From the IMG/VR virus record IMGVR_UViG_3300021138_000001: a stretch of 64,000 nt of DNA; one strand, written 5' to 3'. Origin of the DNA: a virus (lineage: Duplodnaviria; Heunggongvirae; Uroviricota; Caudoviricetes). The notes beneath the pieces were generated by a model that was given only the letters and a program-made list of their open reading frames with translations, was not told the origin of the DNA and made no database searches. The position numbers and the translations under genes were made by a program. Below, in pieces: positions 2 to 58,552 of the stretch (its first letter is position 1; the number at the start of each line of letters is the position of its first letter).

Positions 2-1570
2 TCTATTCAACCAGAATGTGAAGGTGCAATTGATGATATTGTGAATGAAGCAATTGTTAAAGATGATAATCAAGAAATTGTAGATATTAATTTAGACAAT
101 TTAGACGTATCTACAAACATCAAAAATTTAATCATAGAAGAATGGAATAACGTAGCACTATTATTGAACATCAATAATTATGGCTATGAGGTATTCAGAC
201 GTTGGTATATTGATGGTAGACTATATTACCATGTAATGATTGATGAAACAAATCCTCGTGCTGGTATTCAGGAATTGAGATATATCGATCCTAGAACTAT
301 CAGAAAAATCAAAGCAATCAAAAGAGAACGTCGCGGCAATACGTTTGTCAATATTACCGCACAAGAATTTTATATGTATAATGAACGCGGTTTCCGTGGT
401 GCTACTGCTACCGGTATGGATAATCAAGGAATAAGAATTTCTAAGGACTCCATTGTTCAAGTTACATCTGGTCTTATGGATAAAGACAATCGTCTAGTTC
501 TAGGCTATCTTCACAAGGCAATTAAGCCACTAAACCAACTTCGTATGTTGGAAGACGCAACAGTAATTTATCGTATTTCTCGCGCACCAGAGCGTCGTAT
601 TTTCTATATTGACGTAGGCAACCTTCCAAAGATGAAGGCTGAACAATATGTTAAGGATATGATGACTCGTCATAAGAATCGTCTAGTATATGACGCCACA
701 ACAGGTGAAGTAAGAGACGACAGAAAGTTTATGACAATGCTTGAAGACTATTGGCTACCTCGTCGTGAAGGTGGTCGTGGTACAGAAATTTCAACATTAC
801 CATCTGGGCAAAATCTAGGCGAGCTTTCCGACGTTAATTACTTCCAAAAGAAACTTTATAAGTCTCTAAATGTTCCTATGTCAAGAATCGATTCAGATTC
901 TACTGGGTTTAATATGGGACGCGCAGCCGAAATTACTCAAGATGAACTAAAGTTCCAAAAGTATATCAACCGCCTTCATATCAGATTCTCTCAATTGTTT
1001 ATGTTAGCTTTAGAAAAGCAACTACTATTGAAGGCAATTATTACATCAGAAGATTGGGAAAATTTCAAGAATAAGATTCACTTCAATTTCAAGAAAGACA
1101 ATTATCATTCTGAATTGAAAGATGCTGAAATTCTTCGTGAAAGACTTAGTACACTTCAACTATTAGACCCATATGTAGGAATCTTCTATTCTCAAGAATG
1201 GATTAAGAAGAACATTCTAATGCAATCTGAAGAAGACATTTCTACTATGAAAAAGCAAATGGAATCTGAAGAAATATTTCCATTAAGTGCTCTTGCTCAA
1301 ATGCAAGCACAAGAAGATGAAGAGGCCCAAGCTGAAGCCGAAAGAAAACCACCAGAAAAAAAAGAAACTCCTAAAAAGAGCAACACTAAGTCGAAATCAA
1401 CTAAACCACCAGTAAAGCATAGTGTTGGGGGTAGAGCTACAAGTGGTGGTGATCCCGTAAGAACAGAGATTGTTAACGCAGGAAGTGGTCCATATACAAG
1501 AAATATGCCTGAAAAGTACTTCGACTGGAAGAAGCCTTTACTAAAGGCAAAAGCAAAAAATACTAAATAG
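2..1570 (+). CDS. gp20: Portal vertex protein, 5'-truncated by window edge
   Basis: Frame open from base 2; T4 gp20 motifs (RRWYIDGRLYYH, LEDATVIYRISRAPERRIFYIDVGNLPK, EDYWLPRREGGRGTEISTLP). Confidence 0.97.
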   Translation, partial: SIQPECEGAIDDIVNEAIVKDDNQEIVDINLDNLDVSTNIKNLIIEEWNNVALLLNINNYGYEVFRRWYIDGRLYYHVMIDETNPRAGIQELRYIDPRTIRKIKAIKRERRGNTFVNITAQEFYMYNERGFRGATATGMDNQGIRISKDSIVQVTSGLMDKDNRLVLGYLHKAIKPLNQLRMLEDATVIYRISRAPERRIFYIDVGNLPKMKAEQYVKDMMTRHKNRLVYDATTGEVRDDRKFMTMLEDYWLPRREGGRGTEISTLPSGQNLGELSDVNYFQKKLYKSLNVPMSRIDSDSTGFNMGRAAEITQDELKFQKYINRLHIRFSQLFMLALEKQLLLKAIITSEDWENFKNKIHFNFKKDNYHSELKDAEILRERLSTLQLLDPYVGIFYSQEWIKKNILMQSEEDISTMKKQMESEEIFPLSALAQMQAQEDEEAQAEAERKPPEKKETPKKSNTKSKSTKPPVKHSVGGRATSGGDPVRTEIVNAGSGPYTRNMPEKYFDWKKPLLKAKAKNTK

Positions 1571-1593
1571 ATTATAAAATTAGGAGTTTAATT

Positions 1594-1773
1594 ATGCCTT
1601 ATACGACAGACAATATTGTAGATTATATCATGGATAAGGATCATCTGAGTGTAAAAGCTGCTGTAGACGATATTATGGCAAGTAAGATTCAAGATGCTCT
1701 AGAACTCCGTAGAGAATATGTTGGCCAATCCATGTTTAATCCAAGTTCAGAGGAAACAGATGACTCAGAATAA
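1594..1773 (+). CDS. Small prohead core protein (gp67-like), 59 aa, below ORF-track cutoff
   Basis: AGGAG RBS then MPYTTDNIVDYIMDKDHLSVKAAVDDIMASKIQDALELRREYVGQSMF; sits after gp20 as in T4-like phages. Confidence 0.7.
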   Translation: MPYTTDNIVDYIMDKDHLSVKAAVDDIMASKIQDALELRREYVGQSMFNPSSEETDDSE

Positions 1774-2812: not shown

Positions 2813-3472
2813 ATGAAGCTTATTTGCGAAACATTAGAAGACGTTTCAATCATCAAGGAAGCCAGAGAAGACGGCAAGAAGAATTTCTACATTGAGGGAC
2901 CATTCCTAATGGGGGATATTCCAAATAGAAATGGTAGAATTTATGAAAGCCGAATTCTAGCTAAAGAAGTTGCAAGATATACTAAGAATTACATTAAGGA
3001 AAATAGAGCATATGGCGAACTAGGCCATCCTGCTGGTCCAACAATTAATCTTGATCGTGTCTCACACATTATCACAAGCCTTCATCAAGAAGGTTCTAAT
3101 TTCATCGGTAAAGCTAAGATTACAGAAACCCCAATGGGAGACATCGTAAAGGGTCTTCTAGAATCTGGGGGTAAACTTGGCGTTTCTTCTCGTGGTATGG
3201 GTACAGTAACTAGAAGAAAAGATGGTATCATGGAAGTTGGAGAAGACTTCATGTTAGCAACCGCTGCTGATATTGTCGCTGATCCATCAGCACATATTGC
3301 CTATGTTGAATCTGTTGTTGAAGGTCTAGACTGGGTCTATGACGCAGCATCAGGAAACTGGAAAGCAATGAAAGAATTGGAAATTCAAAAAGAACATATC
3401 GCAAAGTCTTCAATGAAGAAAATTAATGAAGAAAAGATAAGACTTTTTGAGCGTTTCCTTCGTACACTATAA
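2813..3472 (+). CDS. gp21: Prohead core scaffold protease
   Basis: Start MKLICE after AAGGA; motifs NRNGRIY, GELGHP, KLGVSSRGMG, DIVADPS. Confidence 0.96.
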   Translation: MKLICETLEDVSIIKEAREDGKKNFYIEGPFLMGDIPNRNGRIYESRILAKEVARYTKNYIKENRAYGELGHPAGPTINLDRVSHIITSLHQEGSNFIGKAKITETPMGDIVKGLLESGGKLGVSSRGMGTVTRRKDGIMEVGEDFMLATAADIVADPSAHIAYVESVVEGLDWVYDAASGNWKAMKELEIQKEHIAKSSMKKINEEKIRLFERFLRTL

Positions 3473-3494
3473 TAAATCTTAAAAAAACAATTTA

Positions 3495-3502
3495 TATAAA
3501 TA
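3495..3502 (+). promoter_or_regulatory. T4-type late promoter TATAAATA
   Basis: Exact motif upstream of gp22. Confidence 0.85.
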
Positions 3503-3533
3503 ATTAATAATCTTTCCAAAAGGAGTAGTTAAA

Positions 3534-4691
3534 ATGGCAGGTAAGAAAAATATTAGTGCGGAAACTCTAGATGAAGTGACTGCATCAGACGGCATCAGCC
3601 ATACTGCTGATCCGTATGCATCTGGGGATTCATCACGTTCTGCTGACAAGAGTGCTGGAGAATCAAGCTATTCTTCTTCAACAAAGTCTGAAGTACTTAG
3701 CGCCATCATGAATCATATTGGTGGTTTAGATAAGGGCGCTCTAGGTAACATTTATAAGGGTCTTCAAGGCGCTTCTGGTTCAGCTACTCGTGCAGCCGAT
3801 AAGTCTGGTGGAGAAGGTTCACAATTGCGCATTTCAGTTTCAGACGCAGACCCAGTAACTGGCGCAAAACTAGCAAACGCTGGTGGTTCTGCTCCAACAA
3901 CACATAATACAACAACCGGTAAGGGTGAAAGGGGGCAAATTCGCCTTTCACCAACTTCAGTAGTTGCTAAGGAAGACGTAGAAGAAATTTTTGGTGGTGA
4001 TGAGCTATCAGAAGAACTAAAGGAAAAGGCAACTGTAGTATTCGAAGCGGCAATTAGTGCTCGCCTAGTTTCAGAAGTTGCTCGTCTAGAAGAAGAATTT
4101 GAAACACGTCTTGAAGAATCAGTAGAATCAATTCGTGGAGAAATTGTTGAAAATGTAGATAAGTATCTCTCTTATGCCGTTGAACAGTGGATTGAAGAGA
4201 ACCAAGTAGCTATTGATACCGGATTAAAGAACGAAATGGCAGAAGAATTTATGTCTGGCCTAAAGAGTCTATTTGAAGCAAATTATATCGACATCCCAGA
4301 AACTAAGGTCGATGTAGTTGCTGAAATGGTAGAAAAGATTGAAGAACTAGAGCTTCGTCTAAATGAAGAAATCGAAAAGAACATTTCTCTACAAGAAGAA
4401 ACAGAAGTTCTTCAAGTAGAAGAAATTTTTTCAACAGCGGTAGAAGGACTAGCAAAGACACAAGCTGAAAAGCTTCGTGATCTAGCAGAAGGTATTTCTT
4501 ACCAAACTGTAGAAGAATTTGAAAAGAAAATCAATATCATTAAAGAAACTTACTTCCCATCATCACAAAAGTCAACTTCAATTACTACACTAACAGAAGA
4601 AGTTGGATATGATGATGAAGAAGTATCAGATTCTGCAACCGGTCCAATGGCTGCTTATATTCAAGCCGTATCTAGACAAGTCAAAAACTAA
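3534..4691 (+). CDS. gp22: Prohead core scaffold protein
   Basis: Acidic coiled coil, VDKYLSYAVEQW and FMSGLKSLFE motifs; between gp21 and gp23. Confidence 0.93.
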   Translation: MAGKKNISAETLDEVTASDGISHTADPYASGDSSRSADKSAGESSYSSSTKSEVLSAIMNHIGGLDKGALGNIYKGLQGASGSATRAADKSGGEGSQLRISVSDADPVTGAKLANAGGSAPTTHNTTTGKGERGQIRLSPTSVVAKEDVEEIFGGDELSEELKEKATVVFEAAISARLVSEVARLEEEFETRLEESVESIRGEIVENVDKYLSYAVEQWIEENQVAIDTGLKNEMAEEFMSGLKSLFEANYIDIPETKVDVVAEMVEKIEELELRLNEEIEKNISLQEETEVLQVEEIFSTAVEGLAKTQAEKLRDLAEGISYQTVEEFEKKINIIKETYFPSSQKSTSITTLTEEVGYDDEEVSDSATGPMAAYIQAVSRQVKN

Positions 4692-6198: not shown

Positions 6199-7593
6199 CT
6201 ATTCTAACACAAATGTTATTGTACCACAATTCCATATTTTTCCGATATTCAACAATTTTGTTATTTGTTTCTCTGACATATTCTGATCAAAGTCTTTTAG
6301 TTTGGATTTTGTAAATTGTGTTCTAGGTACTCGTTTTGAATAATGGTCAATTACATACCAATATGATGGTGGGTTTTCGTGTGATTTTTTGAACCCATTC
6401 TTTATATAAACATTTCCATCAGAATAGCTTCTATCGGCATATGACACAATGCTTCCTGAAAAGCTTTTTCTAAAATAAGATAAAAGTTTAGAAAAACCTC
6501 CAACGACATTAGTATTTAAAATAGTACAATATCTAACCAATTCCCAATCATATTTTTTGTTGAATCTTGGCTTATTAAATGTCATTACTGCAACCAGAGA
6601 ACCTTGATTATATAAGCCGAGATTAACAGAAGATTTTGAGTAGGACTGAATGTGGTTTTTATTTGCAAAGTCTTTGGCTATATGTGGAATTATCTCTTTA
6701 ATTTCACACTTCCTCGCAAAGATCTTTTCTTTTGTCCCCTGTAGTTTGTTGGAAATCATAGACTTAATTTTATCTTTCTGAAATTTCCAATCATCTTCCC
6801 ACACATGAAGAAGAAAGATACCTCTGTCAGCACACAAGTTAGTCTTATTAAAGTGTAGTAGTTTTTCTTTAAATTCTTCGGTATGATAATATAACCCATT
6901 ATATTCAATTGCAAACTTTAGTTCAGGAATTAATATATCTAATTCTTTACCAATATATCCCACACCATTAGAGACAATATTCAAGTCTGGTCTGATACTT
7001 TTCACATAATCTAATACTTCAAGTTCTCCTATAGAAATTTTCTTATGATTTCGTTCATATGAATTAGGATTTCTTGTTATAATACCATGTTTTTGCATAA
7101 ATTTAGATACAGTAGCCTTTGATGTTCCAAGAAGGTCTGCAATTTCTTGAAGTTTGTTTCCTTTGTCATATATGTCTTGAATATATTCTTTATTTCCTAA
7201 AAGCATCTTGGTAGTGTGTTCAGATTCATTTAACCTGATATGAGGAATATTGTGATACTTTATCCACTTAGTTACGGGCGCTATAGATATCCCAAGACTT
7301 TCTGCAATATTTTCAATTGATTTTCTTTGGATAATTCTTTGATCAAATAACCAATTTTTATCCGACAGTTTCAACAAACTATTTTCAGAAATTCTAGACT
7401 TTGCATTTTTCTTGTTGGCTTGTTGAGAAGCTTCCTTATGGCTCTTTCTTTCAATGCCATAATCAATCAACCATTTTCGCACAGTTGGGTTGGAAGTACA
7501 ATAGATTCTAGCCAATTCGGAAATAGATACCCCAGATTGGTTATATTGTTCTTGCAATTCTTCTTTATTTGGTGTTTCTTTTTTATGGCTCAT
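6199..7593 (-). mobile_element. Putative homing endonuclease (three HTH repeats, DUF559/Hef-like PD-(D/E)xK domain, C-terminal GNAT-like domain)
   Basis: Three repeats of type SISELA..Y..S..TVRKW; ELDILIPELKFAIEYNGLYYH; freestanding, antisense to gp23. Confidence 0.7.
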
Positions 7594-7673
7594 GCGATTT
7601 TATGTCTAAGTTTAATAAATACTAAATAGAATATAACTACAATCAAGATAAATAAAAATATCTAGATTAACTT

Positions 7674-7702
7674 GGGGAAGGCTTCGGCCTTCCCCTTTTT
7701 TT
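7674..7702. terminator. Strong hairpin terminator
   Basis: GGGGAAGGC-TTCG-GCCTTCCCC followed by T7. Confidence 0.85.
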
Positions 7703-7704
7703 GT

Positions 7705-8244
7705 TTAATCGTGGTCGTATTCGTTTACGTAATTCTCATCCTTAGTTAGAATAACTTGAACGTGATTACCAAAAACTTGTTCAAGAATTTCTGGATTTTT
7801 CTGGATGACAGTCTTAAAGGCTTCACATTTTTCTGTTACACCAGGATACTTTTCCTGGGTTGCTAGGTATTCCGCATATTTTTCTGGATTATGCTTTTCG
7901 TAATATTCCTTAGTCCAAGAACCCCAAAGTTCTGCCTTAACATATAGATCATCATCTTCATATTCATAAACATCCAGAACATCTTCAGGCTCAAACCCCT
8001 CTAGAATAAAGATAGGTTCATTTACGCTAAAGACACAGTCATCACCATCATTAAAATAAGGTGTATATTGGGTCCAAGCTACAGCCTGTACAGGAACTTC
8101 TTCAAAGAATGCCTTAGTAATATTCTTAAATTCTGACTGAAGCTTTTCTTGATATGACTTACGCATAATTTCAAGCTCAGCATTCATATCATTAATCTTA
8201 TTAGTAATATCTGTAAAGTTTATCATAATATATCTCCTAATCAA
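7705..8244 (-). CDS. Conserved phage hypothetical protein
   Basis: WTQYTPYFNDGD.CVF motif; 179-aa ORF in gene run. Confidence 0.6.
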   Translation of the reverse strand: MIRRYIMINFTDITNKINDMNAELEIMRKSYQEKLQSEFKNITKAFFEEVPVQAVAWTQYTPYFNDGDDCVFSVNEPIFILEGFEPEDVLDVYEYEDDDLYVKAELWGSWTKEYYEKHNPEKYAEYLATQEKYPGVTEKCEAFKTVIQKNPEILEQVFGNHVQVILTKDENYVNEYDHD

Positions 8245-8584
8245 TGTTTTCAGATTTAGTTCGTTTGTGGGTTCCGCTCATCCAAGGTTCAAGCGGCAAA
8301 TCTCTAAGCCAACGCTCCACGGTTGGAATAAAACCTAGATCATCTTGAATATGTTCTTCCGCTACATCGCGTACAGAAACATCTTTTCCTTGGGTGTTGG
8401 TAATATAAACACCAAATACTTGTTCAGCTAAATAACACCCTAAGCTAGAATGAAGAATTGCTCTATGTCTAACATCAGGCATCGCAACTTTAGACTGATC
8501 AATAAAGTTGTGGATTGGTAGATAATCCTCTGGAATTCCACCATGACGCTTGGCAGAAATCTTAGCATGGATCAGGGGTTTCAT
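8237..8584 (-). CDS. Conserved hypothetical protein (DUF6915-like, His-rich)
   Basis: HAKISAKRHGG...HNFID.SK...RHRAILH...AEEHIQDD pattern. Confidence 0.65.
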   Translation of the reverse strand: MKPLIHAKISAKRHGGIPEDYLPIHNFIDQSKVAMPDVRHRAILHSSLGCYLAEQVFGVYITNTQGKDVSVRDVAEEHIQDDLGFIPTVERWLRDLPLEPWMSGTHKRTKSENID

Positions 8585-8785: not shown

Positions 8786-9342
8786 GAAATAGCCTTCCTC
8801 AAATCATCGATAGAAATTGGTGTATAATTGATCTGTTCTACAGATACATTAAAATATCGTGGATCATTATCATACATGGTCATATAGCATCCACCCGGCA
8901 TATACACTTCTCTTTCAATTGTAATACGATTTGCGTGTAGATGTCCATGAACATTTACCTTAAATCGGTCAGAAACACAATCTGGATGAAGAGGCATATG
9001 AGTTAGAATGAATTGATCGACAAATACGCGATATGCTGAGACTTCATAGAAATACTTTAGATATTCCTTTGAACCAAAAATATCATGATTGCCCATAATC
9101 AGACGTTTCTCACCATTTAGACGAGACATAATAGGAAGAGACTTCTTATTAATTACGACATCGCCAAGATGGTATACCTTATCATTCTTCTTGACTACTG
9201 AATTCCAGCGGTCAACCATAGCTTCATCCATTTCTTCGGCATTAGCAAAAGGACGTAGTGGAGTACCATCTTCTCGCTTGAATACCGTGCAGCACTTATC
9301 ATGCCCAAAATGGGTGTCAGAAATAAAAAAAGTATTTGACAT
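8782..9342 (-). CDS. Calcineurin-like metallophosphoesterase
   Basis: SDTHFGH, HLGDV, GNHD, VHGHLH motifs. Confidence 0.9.
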   Translation of the reverse strand: MSNTFFISDTHFGHDKCCTVFKREDGTPLRPFANAEEMDEAMVDRWNSVVKKNDKVYHLGDVVINKKSLPIMSRLNGEKRLIMGNHDIFGSKEYLKYFYEVSAYRVFVDQFILTHMPLHPDCVSDRFKVNVHGHLHANRITIEREVYMPGGCYMTMYDNDPRYFNVSVEQINYTPISIDDLRKAIS

Positions 9343-55559: not shown

Positions 55560-55651
55560 GGACTGGCATCTGGTGGTGGCGAGGGCCTTATACCCCCTTT
55601 GGTCGGCAGATTACCGATTTGCTGAGAGTTCGATTCTCTCCCGGTCTACCA
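55560..55651 (+). tRNA. tRNA with UAU anticodon (Ile by anticodon), long variable arm
   Basis: GGACTGG/CCGGTCT acceptor stem, CT-TAT-AC loop, GAGAG-TTCGATT-CTCTC T-arm, CCA. Confidence 0.8.
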
Positions 55652-57169: not shown

Positions 57170-57245
57170 TGCGGGTTGGCGCAGGCAGTAGCGCGCTAGG
57201 CTCATAACCTAGAGGTCAGTGGTGCGACTCCACTATCCGCTCCCA
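57170..57245 (+). tRNA. tRNA-Met (CAU), initiator-like
   Basis: CT-CAT-AA loop, mismatched 1-72 pair, TGCGACT T-loop, CCA. Confidence 0.8.
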
Positions 57246-57816: not shown

Positions 57817-57845
57817 TCGTGATCTCCTGTTTTAATTATATTTAT

Positions 57846-57929
57846 GCCTGGGTAAAGTTACAAGTTGTAGCAGGGGGGTCTGTAAAACCCCTCCTTTGGG
57901 GAGTCGGGCGGTACGGCACCCAGGCACCA
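57846..57929 (+). tRNA. Non-canonical tRNA-Tyr (GUA), 8/4 fold
   Basis: 8-bp GCCTGGGT/ACCCAGGC acceptor stem, 6-bp D-stem, CT-GTA-AA loop, 4-bp T-stem with GGCGGTA loop, ACCA end. Confidence 0.75.
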
Positions 57930-58459: not shown

Positions 58460-58477
58460 TTATAAATAGAATATGTG

Positions 58478-58552
58478 AGCGGACTTCGTACAATGGTAGT
58501 ACCTCAGTCTCCAAAACTGAAGACGTGGGTTCGATCCCACCTTCGACTACCA
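58478..58552 (+). pseudogene. Degenerate tRNA-Trp (CCA)
   Basis: Intact D-arm and CT-CCA-AA anticodon arm, but 6-nt T-loop and poorly paired acceptor stem; late promoter 58461-58468. Confidence 0.6.

Follow-up and report, generated by a model that had tools for sequence, protein, structure and literature searches.

The 84 bases at positions 57846 to 57929 of the window, by which we mean the whole stretch of 64,000 nucleotides of phage DNA that was analysed, are a real, oddly shaped tRNA-Tyr gene. It is probably a functional elongator tRNA-Tyr gene (anticodon GUA, reading UAU and UAC) from a phage lineage in which the acceptor/T branch and the elbow of tRNA-Tyr are rebuilt. As judged by alignment, it can be assigned to a large, widespread and under-annotated group of phage tRNA-Tyr genes, frequently the sole tRNA-Tyr of the phage concerned. 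Its architecture is of a known class, in which it would represent a new isoacceptor type, combined with a variant of the elbow.

The gene and its parts are located as follows:

57846-57929, + strand: tRNA-Tyr gene, 84 bases, cloverleaf with GUA anticodon, read directly from the sequence
57846-57853, + strand: 5' strand of the acceptor stem, of which G1 to G7 pair perfectly with 57919-57925
57854-57856, + strand: AAA linker from the acceptor stem to the D arm, read from the sequence
57857-57871, + strand: D arm with a 5-bp stem GUUAC/GUAGC and the loop AAGUU (A18 G19)
57872-57873, + strand: equivalent of A26 plus one extra G, from the sequence and the family parse
57874-57892, + strand: anticodon arm with a 6-bp stem GGGGGU/ACCCCU and the loop CUGUAAA (57880-57886)
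57893-57902, + strand: short class-II variable arm of 10 nt (CC UUUG GG GA)
57903-57917, + strand: T arm with the 4-bp stem GUCG/CGGC (57903-57906 with 57914-57917)
57918 and 57919-57925, + strand: invariant A, then the 3' strand of the acceptor stem (CCCAGGC), from the sequence and the family alignment

U8 (57853) faces the A at 57918, with which it could form an eighth acceptor pair. The anticodon occupies 57882-57884 in a 7-nt loop that keeps U33 and A37, the variable arm can form two to three pairs, the T loop (57907-57913) reads GGCGGUA (G54 G55 C56 G57 G58 U59 A60), and the gene ends with the discriminator A73 (57926) and an encoded CCA (57927-57929). Position 49.65 is A.A, and of the canonical residues G18G19 and U54-U55-C56-R57-A58 just G19 and C56 are retained. 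A sequence-only reading had flagged the GUA anticodon, A73, encoded CCA, 4-bp T stem and GGCGGUA loop, and all of these were found as described. It had also proposed a 6-bp D stem with a 3-nt loop. The required sixth pair, A17-U21, is possible in the window copy, but the relatives lack it and have 5 bp and a loop of 5 to 6 nt. The extra G after A26 is likewise confined to the window copy and can pair with C at 57893, which would give a 7-bp anticodon stem. The minimum-energy fold of the 84 bases is the cloverleaf listed above. Its energy was marginal relative to shuffled sequences (z = -1.97; 4 of 200 shuffles as good), so that thermodynamics alone is not decisive and the weight comes from homology.

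Similarity searches with the element itself yielded little. No exact or near-exact match to a 22-mer of the anticodon arm or to the T arm plus ACCA was found among viral contigs, megablast of the 3-kb neighbourhood against cultured phages returned nothing, and the sole blastn match of the element was insignificant and lay in the anticodon arm of canonical Streptomyces phage tRNA-Tyr genes. A pattern made of the loops only (CTGTAAA, gap, GGCGGTA, gap, ACCA) occurred in 49 IMG/VR stretches, near the rough chance expectation; 13 of the 49 matches were full cloverleaves within tRNA arrays, and widening the T-loop pattern to GGCRGYA gave many more matches to tRNA-Tyr(GUA). Two of the new sequences, L263 and L264, could be aligned with the window nearly without gaps, as could a site in the cultured Rhodobacter phage RcXuper that carries no annotation; the 5-bp D hairpin of this set is described as rich in G+C. 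An HMM was trained on these three and on Roseobacter phage DSS3P8, the other cultured phage in which the type was found, with the window left out. The single nhmmer match of this model in the 64 kb was the site described here (E = 6.9e-12). Another model, R3, gave 90.6 bits at the site, a score to be read in view of the fact that R3 was trained partly on that site.

The layout shared by these genes consists of N8, AAA, a 5-bp D stem enclosing N-R-G-Y-U, A, a 6-bp anticodon stem, a variable arm of 10 to 14 nt, a 4-bp T stem, an invariant A, seven acceptor nucleotides and ACCA. With both loops left free, this pattern had at least 120 matches in IMG/VR. Among the matches listed, 30 distinct members including the window were parsed position by position, and a model-fitted alignment (A8) comprised about 37 distinct sequences, mostly from uncultured phage contigs. 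The window fits the same layout expression as the other 29 parsed members, bar the extra G after A26, and is the most divergent member of the family; it has this G, a possible 3-nt D loop and G54.G58. Among the sequences searched, the family occurs in phages and not in cells: a scan of cellular genome contigs gave one true match among those listed, on a contig that looks phage-like and is identical to L096. It was therefore rejected that the exact type is of cellular origin, the more so as the Tyr matches examined in 101 genomes of the family of G002, a Frigidibacter genome (presumably Rhodobacteraceae), were of the 7/5 type, i.e. with seven acceptor and five T-stem pairs.

Standard tRNA finders are silent at the site, in agreement with the earlier suggestion that it would be missed by such scans. 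ARAGORN listed 12 tRNAs in the window, of which seven lie between 55694 and 57481 and none falls at 57846-57929. Rfam searches at E values up to 10 gave no match there either, neither to the canonical tRNA model RF00005 (family score threshold used, 29 bits) nor to the tRNA-Sec model RF01852. Within the family, ARAGORN reports just those genes whose loops are the most ordinary (L306, L357 and DSS3P8) and misses RcXuper, L310, L329, L333, L300, L303, L354, L263, L264 and the window copy, while the Rfam tRNA model found none of seven members tested. Two of the tested members, both with canonical T loops, matched the tRNA-Sec model with 39.3 and 36.4 bits, below its cut-off of 47 bits. That relatives with ordinary T loops score just below the tRNA-Sec threshold recalls the discovery of allo-tRNAs, which were first found as false positives for tRNA-Sec (PMC5389517).

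The fold was evaluated by covariation. In the 37-sequence alignment 97.7% of the cells are paired, and compensatory changes occur in 20 of the 25 pairs; none of 500 shuffles did as well, and pairing dropped to 40-50% when the partners were slid against each other. Covariation across homologues thus supports the cloverleaf. Applied independently to this alignment, RNAalifold gave stems of 7 bp for the acceptor, 5 bp for the D arm, 6 bp for the anticodon arm and 4 bp for the T arm, plus a stem in the variable arm. Acceptor pairs 1 to 7 are 97% paired across the family, with compensatory changes; the AAA linker is present in 29 of the 30 parsed members; the D loops have the form N-R18-G19-Y-U; the 6-bp anticodon stem covaries; and the two pairs of the variable-arm stem are kept in 98.6% of the cells. 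The comparison shows the T stem of the family to have 4 bp: it is fully paired in the 37 sequences, with compensatory changes in three of the four pairs, and the would-be fifth pair, 49.65, is G.A in 15, A.A in 13 and C.A in two of the 30 parsed members and never Watson-Crick.

The base after the T stem is A in all members, and it faces U8 in 31 and G8 in six of the 37 sequences. The acceptor and T stems together form 12 layers, as in normal tRNAs, and are most simply read as an 8/4 branch in which U-A or G.A makes up the eighth layer, with U8-A as a likely eighth acceptor pair. Of the 8-bp acceptor stem and 4-bp T stem proposed at the outset, the latter is firm, whereas the eighth acceptor pair shows no Watson-Crick swap and is left open by RNAalifold. 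A plain 7/5 fold was first favoured on the basis of tRNA-Tyr genes with GGCGGUA loops; it was dropped because closer relatives share the linker, the D hairpin and the 4-bp T stem. No homologue with a normal 7/5 fold was seen in the aligned family, all 37 having four T pairs. The description as a non-canonical tRNA-Tyr with a shortened T stem and an acceptor branch similar to that of tRNA-Sec and allo-tRNAs is thus supported.

The unusual T loop was considered together with the D loop it is expected to contact. Positions 18 and 55 covary without exception among the 30 parsed members (G18 with U55 in 23, A18 with G55 in six; one could not be parsed). The elbow of the window combines A18 (loop AAGUU) with G55 (GGCGGUA), while that of RcXuper combines the D loop GGGUU with the T loop UUCGAGU. 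G19 and C56 are invariant across the family, and position 54.58 occurs as U.A, A.A, A.U, G.G or C.A, the window having G.G. Many members retain a canonical T loop. The covariation of 18 and 55 marks the odd T loop as a compensated elbow variant rather than a product of decay, and such compensated versions argue for selection on a tRNA-like L shape. The GGCGGUA loop is therefore not confined to this RNA, but belongs to a set of variants that the D loop compensates. With guanines at 54 and 55, neither m5U54 nor Psi55 can be formed, since TrmA and TruB substrates require a uridine. We know of no solved precedent for a T loop with G54.G58, and a literature search returned no paper describing an A18/G55 swap. 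Kinship with tmRNA or alpha-tmRNA was considered and rejected; the only trace was a weak resemblance of the T arm in L109 (20 bits).

Altered elbows are also present in other phage tRNAs. The same T loops occur in Thr, Gln, Gly, His, Asn and Ile tRNAs of phages with the GGCRGYA type, so the loop is not specific to Tyr. Combined with AG in place of GG in the D loop it was observed in L087, L100, L117, L120, L263 and L264, the isoacceptors being Thr(UGU), Gln(CUG), Gly(GCC), His(GUG), Asn(GUU) and Ile(GAU) (e.g. L117 1629-1702 and L263 3726-3800). Whole phage tRNA sets appear to share an altered elbow. A further loop with G55, UGCGACU, is found in a tRNA-Met(CAU) with a 1-72 mismatch at 57170-57245 (+) of the window, in L001 (2566-2641) and in L131 (378-459), and also in the tRNA-Tyr that Enterococcus phages related to EF24C as a group carry, a gene annotated in some records only.

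The architecture was compared with that of known tRNA types. tRNAs with 8/4 and 9/3 branches, including phage tRNA-Ser and tRNA-His, have been described; allo-tRNAs with such branches work on E. coli ribosomes and have long D stems with tetraloops, longer anticodon stems and long variable arms (Mukai 2017, PMC5389517). An 8/4 tRNA-Tyr is mentioned neither in the main text of that paper nor in a 2020 review of non-canonical tRNAs. The present family resembles the published 8/4 tRNAs in its 12-layer branch with a likely 8+4 split, its 6-bp anticodon stem and variable arm, its long D stem with a very short loop (5-6 bp and 3-5 nt in the window copy) and its presence in phage tRNA clusters, those of alphaproteobacterial phages included. 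It differs from them in having a GUA anticodon, an invariant A73 and Tyr-type instead of Ser-type marks, a linker of three bases (AAA) instead of two, a short variable arm, and an eighth 'pair' that is U-A or G.A and never covaries. tRNA-Sec (RF01852) has in common with it the eight-layer acceptor stem, the long D stem with a tiny loop, the 6-bp anticodon stem and a variable arm, but its branch has 13 layers (8/5 or 9/4), its anticodon is UCA, its discriminator is G73 and its variable arm is long. The tRNA-Tyr of Rhodobacteraceae shares the compact D arm (5 bp and a 5-nt loop) followed by A26, yet is 7/5, with a linker of two bases, an anticodon stem of 5 bp, G18G19 and UUCGA. In L409, a genome of the family of G002, an (8/4) tRNA-Ser(GCU) is located at 1501-1587 (-); its discriminator is G73, its linker consists of two bases (AA), its D stem has 5 bp, and it agrees with the proteobacterial (8/4) tRNA-Ser (Mukai 2017, PMC5389517).

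A second group of phage tRNA-Tyr genes, most of them with a 7/5 fold, has a GGCRGYA T loop (GGCGGUA, GGCAGUA, GGCGGCA or GGCAGCA), e.g. L091 (662-746), L096 (4193-4277) and L109 (10029-10113). Their cloverleaf is also supported by covariation (93.6% of the cells paired; double changes in 18 of 24 pairs; 0 of 500 shuffles as good). They resemble the window copy in the T-loop family, the lack of GG in the D loop, GUA, A73, CCA and the short variable arm, and those tested are likewise missed by ARAGORN and Rfam; the 7/5 genes differ in that the T stem has 5 bp, the D stem has 4 bp and a loop of 9 to 10 nt, and a G7.A66 mismatch is usual. This mismatch at the junction of acceptor and T stems recurs in L091, L096, L128, L270, L261, L278 and L272, whose stems otherwise differ, and lies one layer from the N8.A of the 8/4 family.

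The phage to which the window belongs is T4-like, has a G+C content of about 35% and encodes UvsW, a tail tube protein similar to gp19 and an operon for heptose sugars. The tRNA-Tyr gene stands alone, with a convergent ORF between it and the tRNA array. Its upstream neighbour is an ORF of 114 aa and its downstream neighbour a DUF458 (RNase H-like) gene. No convincing promoter for the tRNA gene itself was found in the window; a sigma-70-like match at 57835-57863 (-) (TTGTAA, 17 nt, TATAAT; 10/12) overlaps the 5' part of the gene and would serve the divergent 114-aa DUF1003-like ORF. In L001, the closest of the retrieved relatives by its neighbouring DUF458 protein (81% identity), both the element and the adjacent 114-aa ORF are missing, so that the gene is either dispensable or recently gained. 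A metagenome scan with the 114-aa ORF gave 80 loci of a widespread DUF1003-like family, none of them with the element.

Other family members are 1 to 9 nt from neighbouring tRNAs in arrays, where this was measured. The following three are located in arrays in which ARAGORN reports 22 (L303), 30 (L354) and 17 (L264) tRNAs and no other tRNA-Tyr:

L303, 8184-8268: family member between tRNA-Thr (8103-8178) and tRNA-Ile (8270-8345)
L354, 7517-7601: family member between tRNA-Thr (7437-7511) and tRNA-Ile (7608-7683)
L264, 1281-1364: family member in the tRNA array

RcXuper has a canonical tRNA-Tyr immediately next to its copy of the 8/4 type, a hint that these types are not simply redundant.

Several further observations concern the tRNA regions. 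A nucleotidyltransferase gene is located just upstream of the Tyr tRNA genes in RcXuper, DSS3P8 and RpAliso (L282 2814-3803, L283 9957-10970 and L284 2345-3346) and is annotated as tRNA nucleotidyltransferase in RpAliso; the tRNA regions of the same three phages contain a DUF458 RNase H-like gene, as does that of the window. A tRNA-like gene of 92 nt at 55560-55651 (+) of the window has an anticodon loop of the UAU type, a long variable arm and a normal T arm, UUCGAUU; it is missed by ARAGORN, matches the Rfam tRNA-Sec model weakly (24.5 bits) and looks 7/5 by eye; UAU is among the commonest anticodons of allo-tRNAs (Mukai 2017, PMC5389517). A tRNA-Trp(CCA)-like gene at 58475-58552 (+) matches the Rfam tRNA model in its D, anticodon and T arms (41 bits, model positions 10-63). 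Its acceptor strands are unpaired, whereas the L001 copy (3471-3547) has a good 7-bp stem; ARAGORN misses both, and the window copy may be decaying. L001 further contains a tRNA-Phe (2887-2996) that matches the copy of the window up to the anticodon loop and then diverges, which indicates a broken or interrupted gene, and an unannotated tRNA-Val(UAC) at 3665-3738 with the T loop AGCGUUA and the D loop AAUAGCA. The tRNA array of the phage contig L300 contains a full-length GOLLD RNA at 1177-1643 (-) (187.5 bits, above the Rfam threshold), within which a tRNA-Arg is located (1505-1580). At 9024-9097 (+) L354 has a tRNA with a CUA (amber) anticodon, labelled tRNA-Pyl by ARAGORN, which is a possible suppressor tRNA.

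With respect to function, G1-C72, A73, the GUA anticodon and a class-II variable arm are shared by the window copy and each of the 37 distinct aligned relatives, as in bacterial class-II tRNA-Tyr. The marks by which bacterial TyrRS recognizes its substrate are G1-C72, A73, G34-U35 and the class-II arm. The role as an elongator is deduced from the three arrays of 17 to 30 ARAGORN tRNAs in which this type is the sole tRNA-Tyr found. In the proposed mechanism the 12-layer stack of acceptor and T stems would be kept and divided anew into seven Watson-Crick pairs, U8 or G8 over A, and four T pairs, while the loop of the compact D hairpin would still offer R18-G19 to the T loop. In the window copy A18-G55 would take the place of G18-Psi55 and G.G that of U.A at 54.58, with G19-C56 kept. 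The RNA would be released by RNase P together with 3' processing enzymes, aminoacylated by the TyrRS of the host, given the retained identity marks, and used on the ribosome during infection; its likely purpose would be to sustain Tyr decoding when the host tRNA-Tyr is limiting or attacked.

Three other readings were weighed against that of an elongator. The odd shape might be a resistance device rather than drift, driven by host immunity: a putative counter-defence tRNA-Tyr would decode Tyr codons, and its rebuilt branch, short variable arm and altered elbow would mainly evade nucleases, either tRNA-Tyr nucleases of the Septu/retron-Eco7 PtuAB type or enzymes directed at the elbow or T loop. 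The restriction of the type to phages among the sequences searched, the 7/5 fold of the best Tyr matches in the 101 genomes, the pairing of an 8/4 copy with a canonical tRNA-Tyr in RcXuper and the exclusion of m5U54 and Psi55 by G54 and G55 are in line with this. So is the fact that tRNA-Tyr is a known target: Septu and retron-Eco7 PtuAB cleave its variable arm, a phage tRNA-Tyr rescues infection, and the tRNA-Tyr of T5 is reported to be resistant through its variable loop (PMC13096335, PMC11555353). However, Septu is reported to cut the tRNA-Tyr of T6 too, the ordinary anticodon loop would not evade anticodon nucleases, and the canonical T loop of many members means that the elbow change is not the defining trait of the family. 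Overall we consider this account unlikely, and nuclease resistance of the window tRNA, which the sequence-only reading had raised, is speculative.

For the window copy in particular some caution seems warranted, as it lies off the array, has no clear promoter, is missing from L001 and is the most divergent of the family. The gene might accordingly be decaying or have a non-translational role, as a pseudogene, a decoy, a processing signal or the partner RNA of the phage's own Ro60-like protein; the acceptor stem is broken in at least one other tRNA-like gene of the window (58475-58552), and some allo-tRNAs are inactive in translation (Mukai 2017, PMC5389517). Yet all stems are intact, U33, A37, A73 and CCA are retained, and the mutual compensation of A18 and G55 is not expected from decay, which makes this reading improbable. 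Charging with a non-Tyr amino acid (Ser or Leu, as in allo-tRNAs), which would recode UAY codons, has very little to recommend it. A73 is also the Leu discriminator in E. coli, but Ser-type allo-tRNAs have G73 or U73, the variable arm has only two to three pairs, and G34 and U35 are the main TyrRS marks. The architecture is allo-tRNA-like, and many allo-tRNAs have non-Ser anticodons (PMC5389517); as the type is the sole tRNA-Tyr found in several large phage sets, however, every Tyr codon would be mistranslated. The presence of a sole tRNA-Tyr in three arrays and the conserved bacterial Tyr identity marks thus run contrary to both non-Tyr charging and a non-translational role, as had been suggested for this RNA, and the elongator tRNA-Tyr is the reading we prefer.

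Phage tRNA sets inform on codon adaptation, host range and counter-defence, and a whole class of tRNA-Tyr escapes ARAGORN and Rfam. Since the class is missed by ARAGORN and the Rfam tRNA model, three arrays of 17 to 30 called tRNAs wrongly seem to be devoid of tRNA-Tyr. The 8/4 phage tRNA-Tyr genes offer ready-made scaffolds for the design of orthogonal tRNAs. The exception-free swap at 18 and 55, together with the variants at 54.58, amounts to a natural experiment on change of the elbow with the gene kept. Finally, with tRNA-Tyr being a specific target of Septu and retron-Eco7, a phage-specific, altered tRNA-Tyr is an obvious candidate for a participant in the arms race between phages and their hosts.
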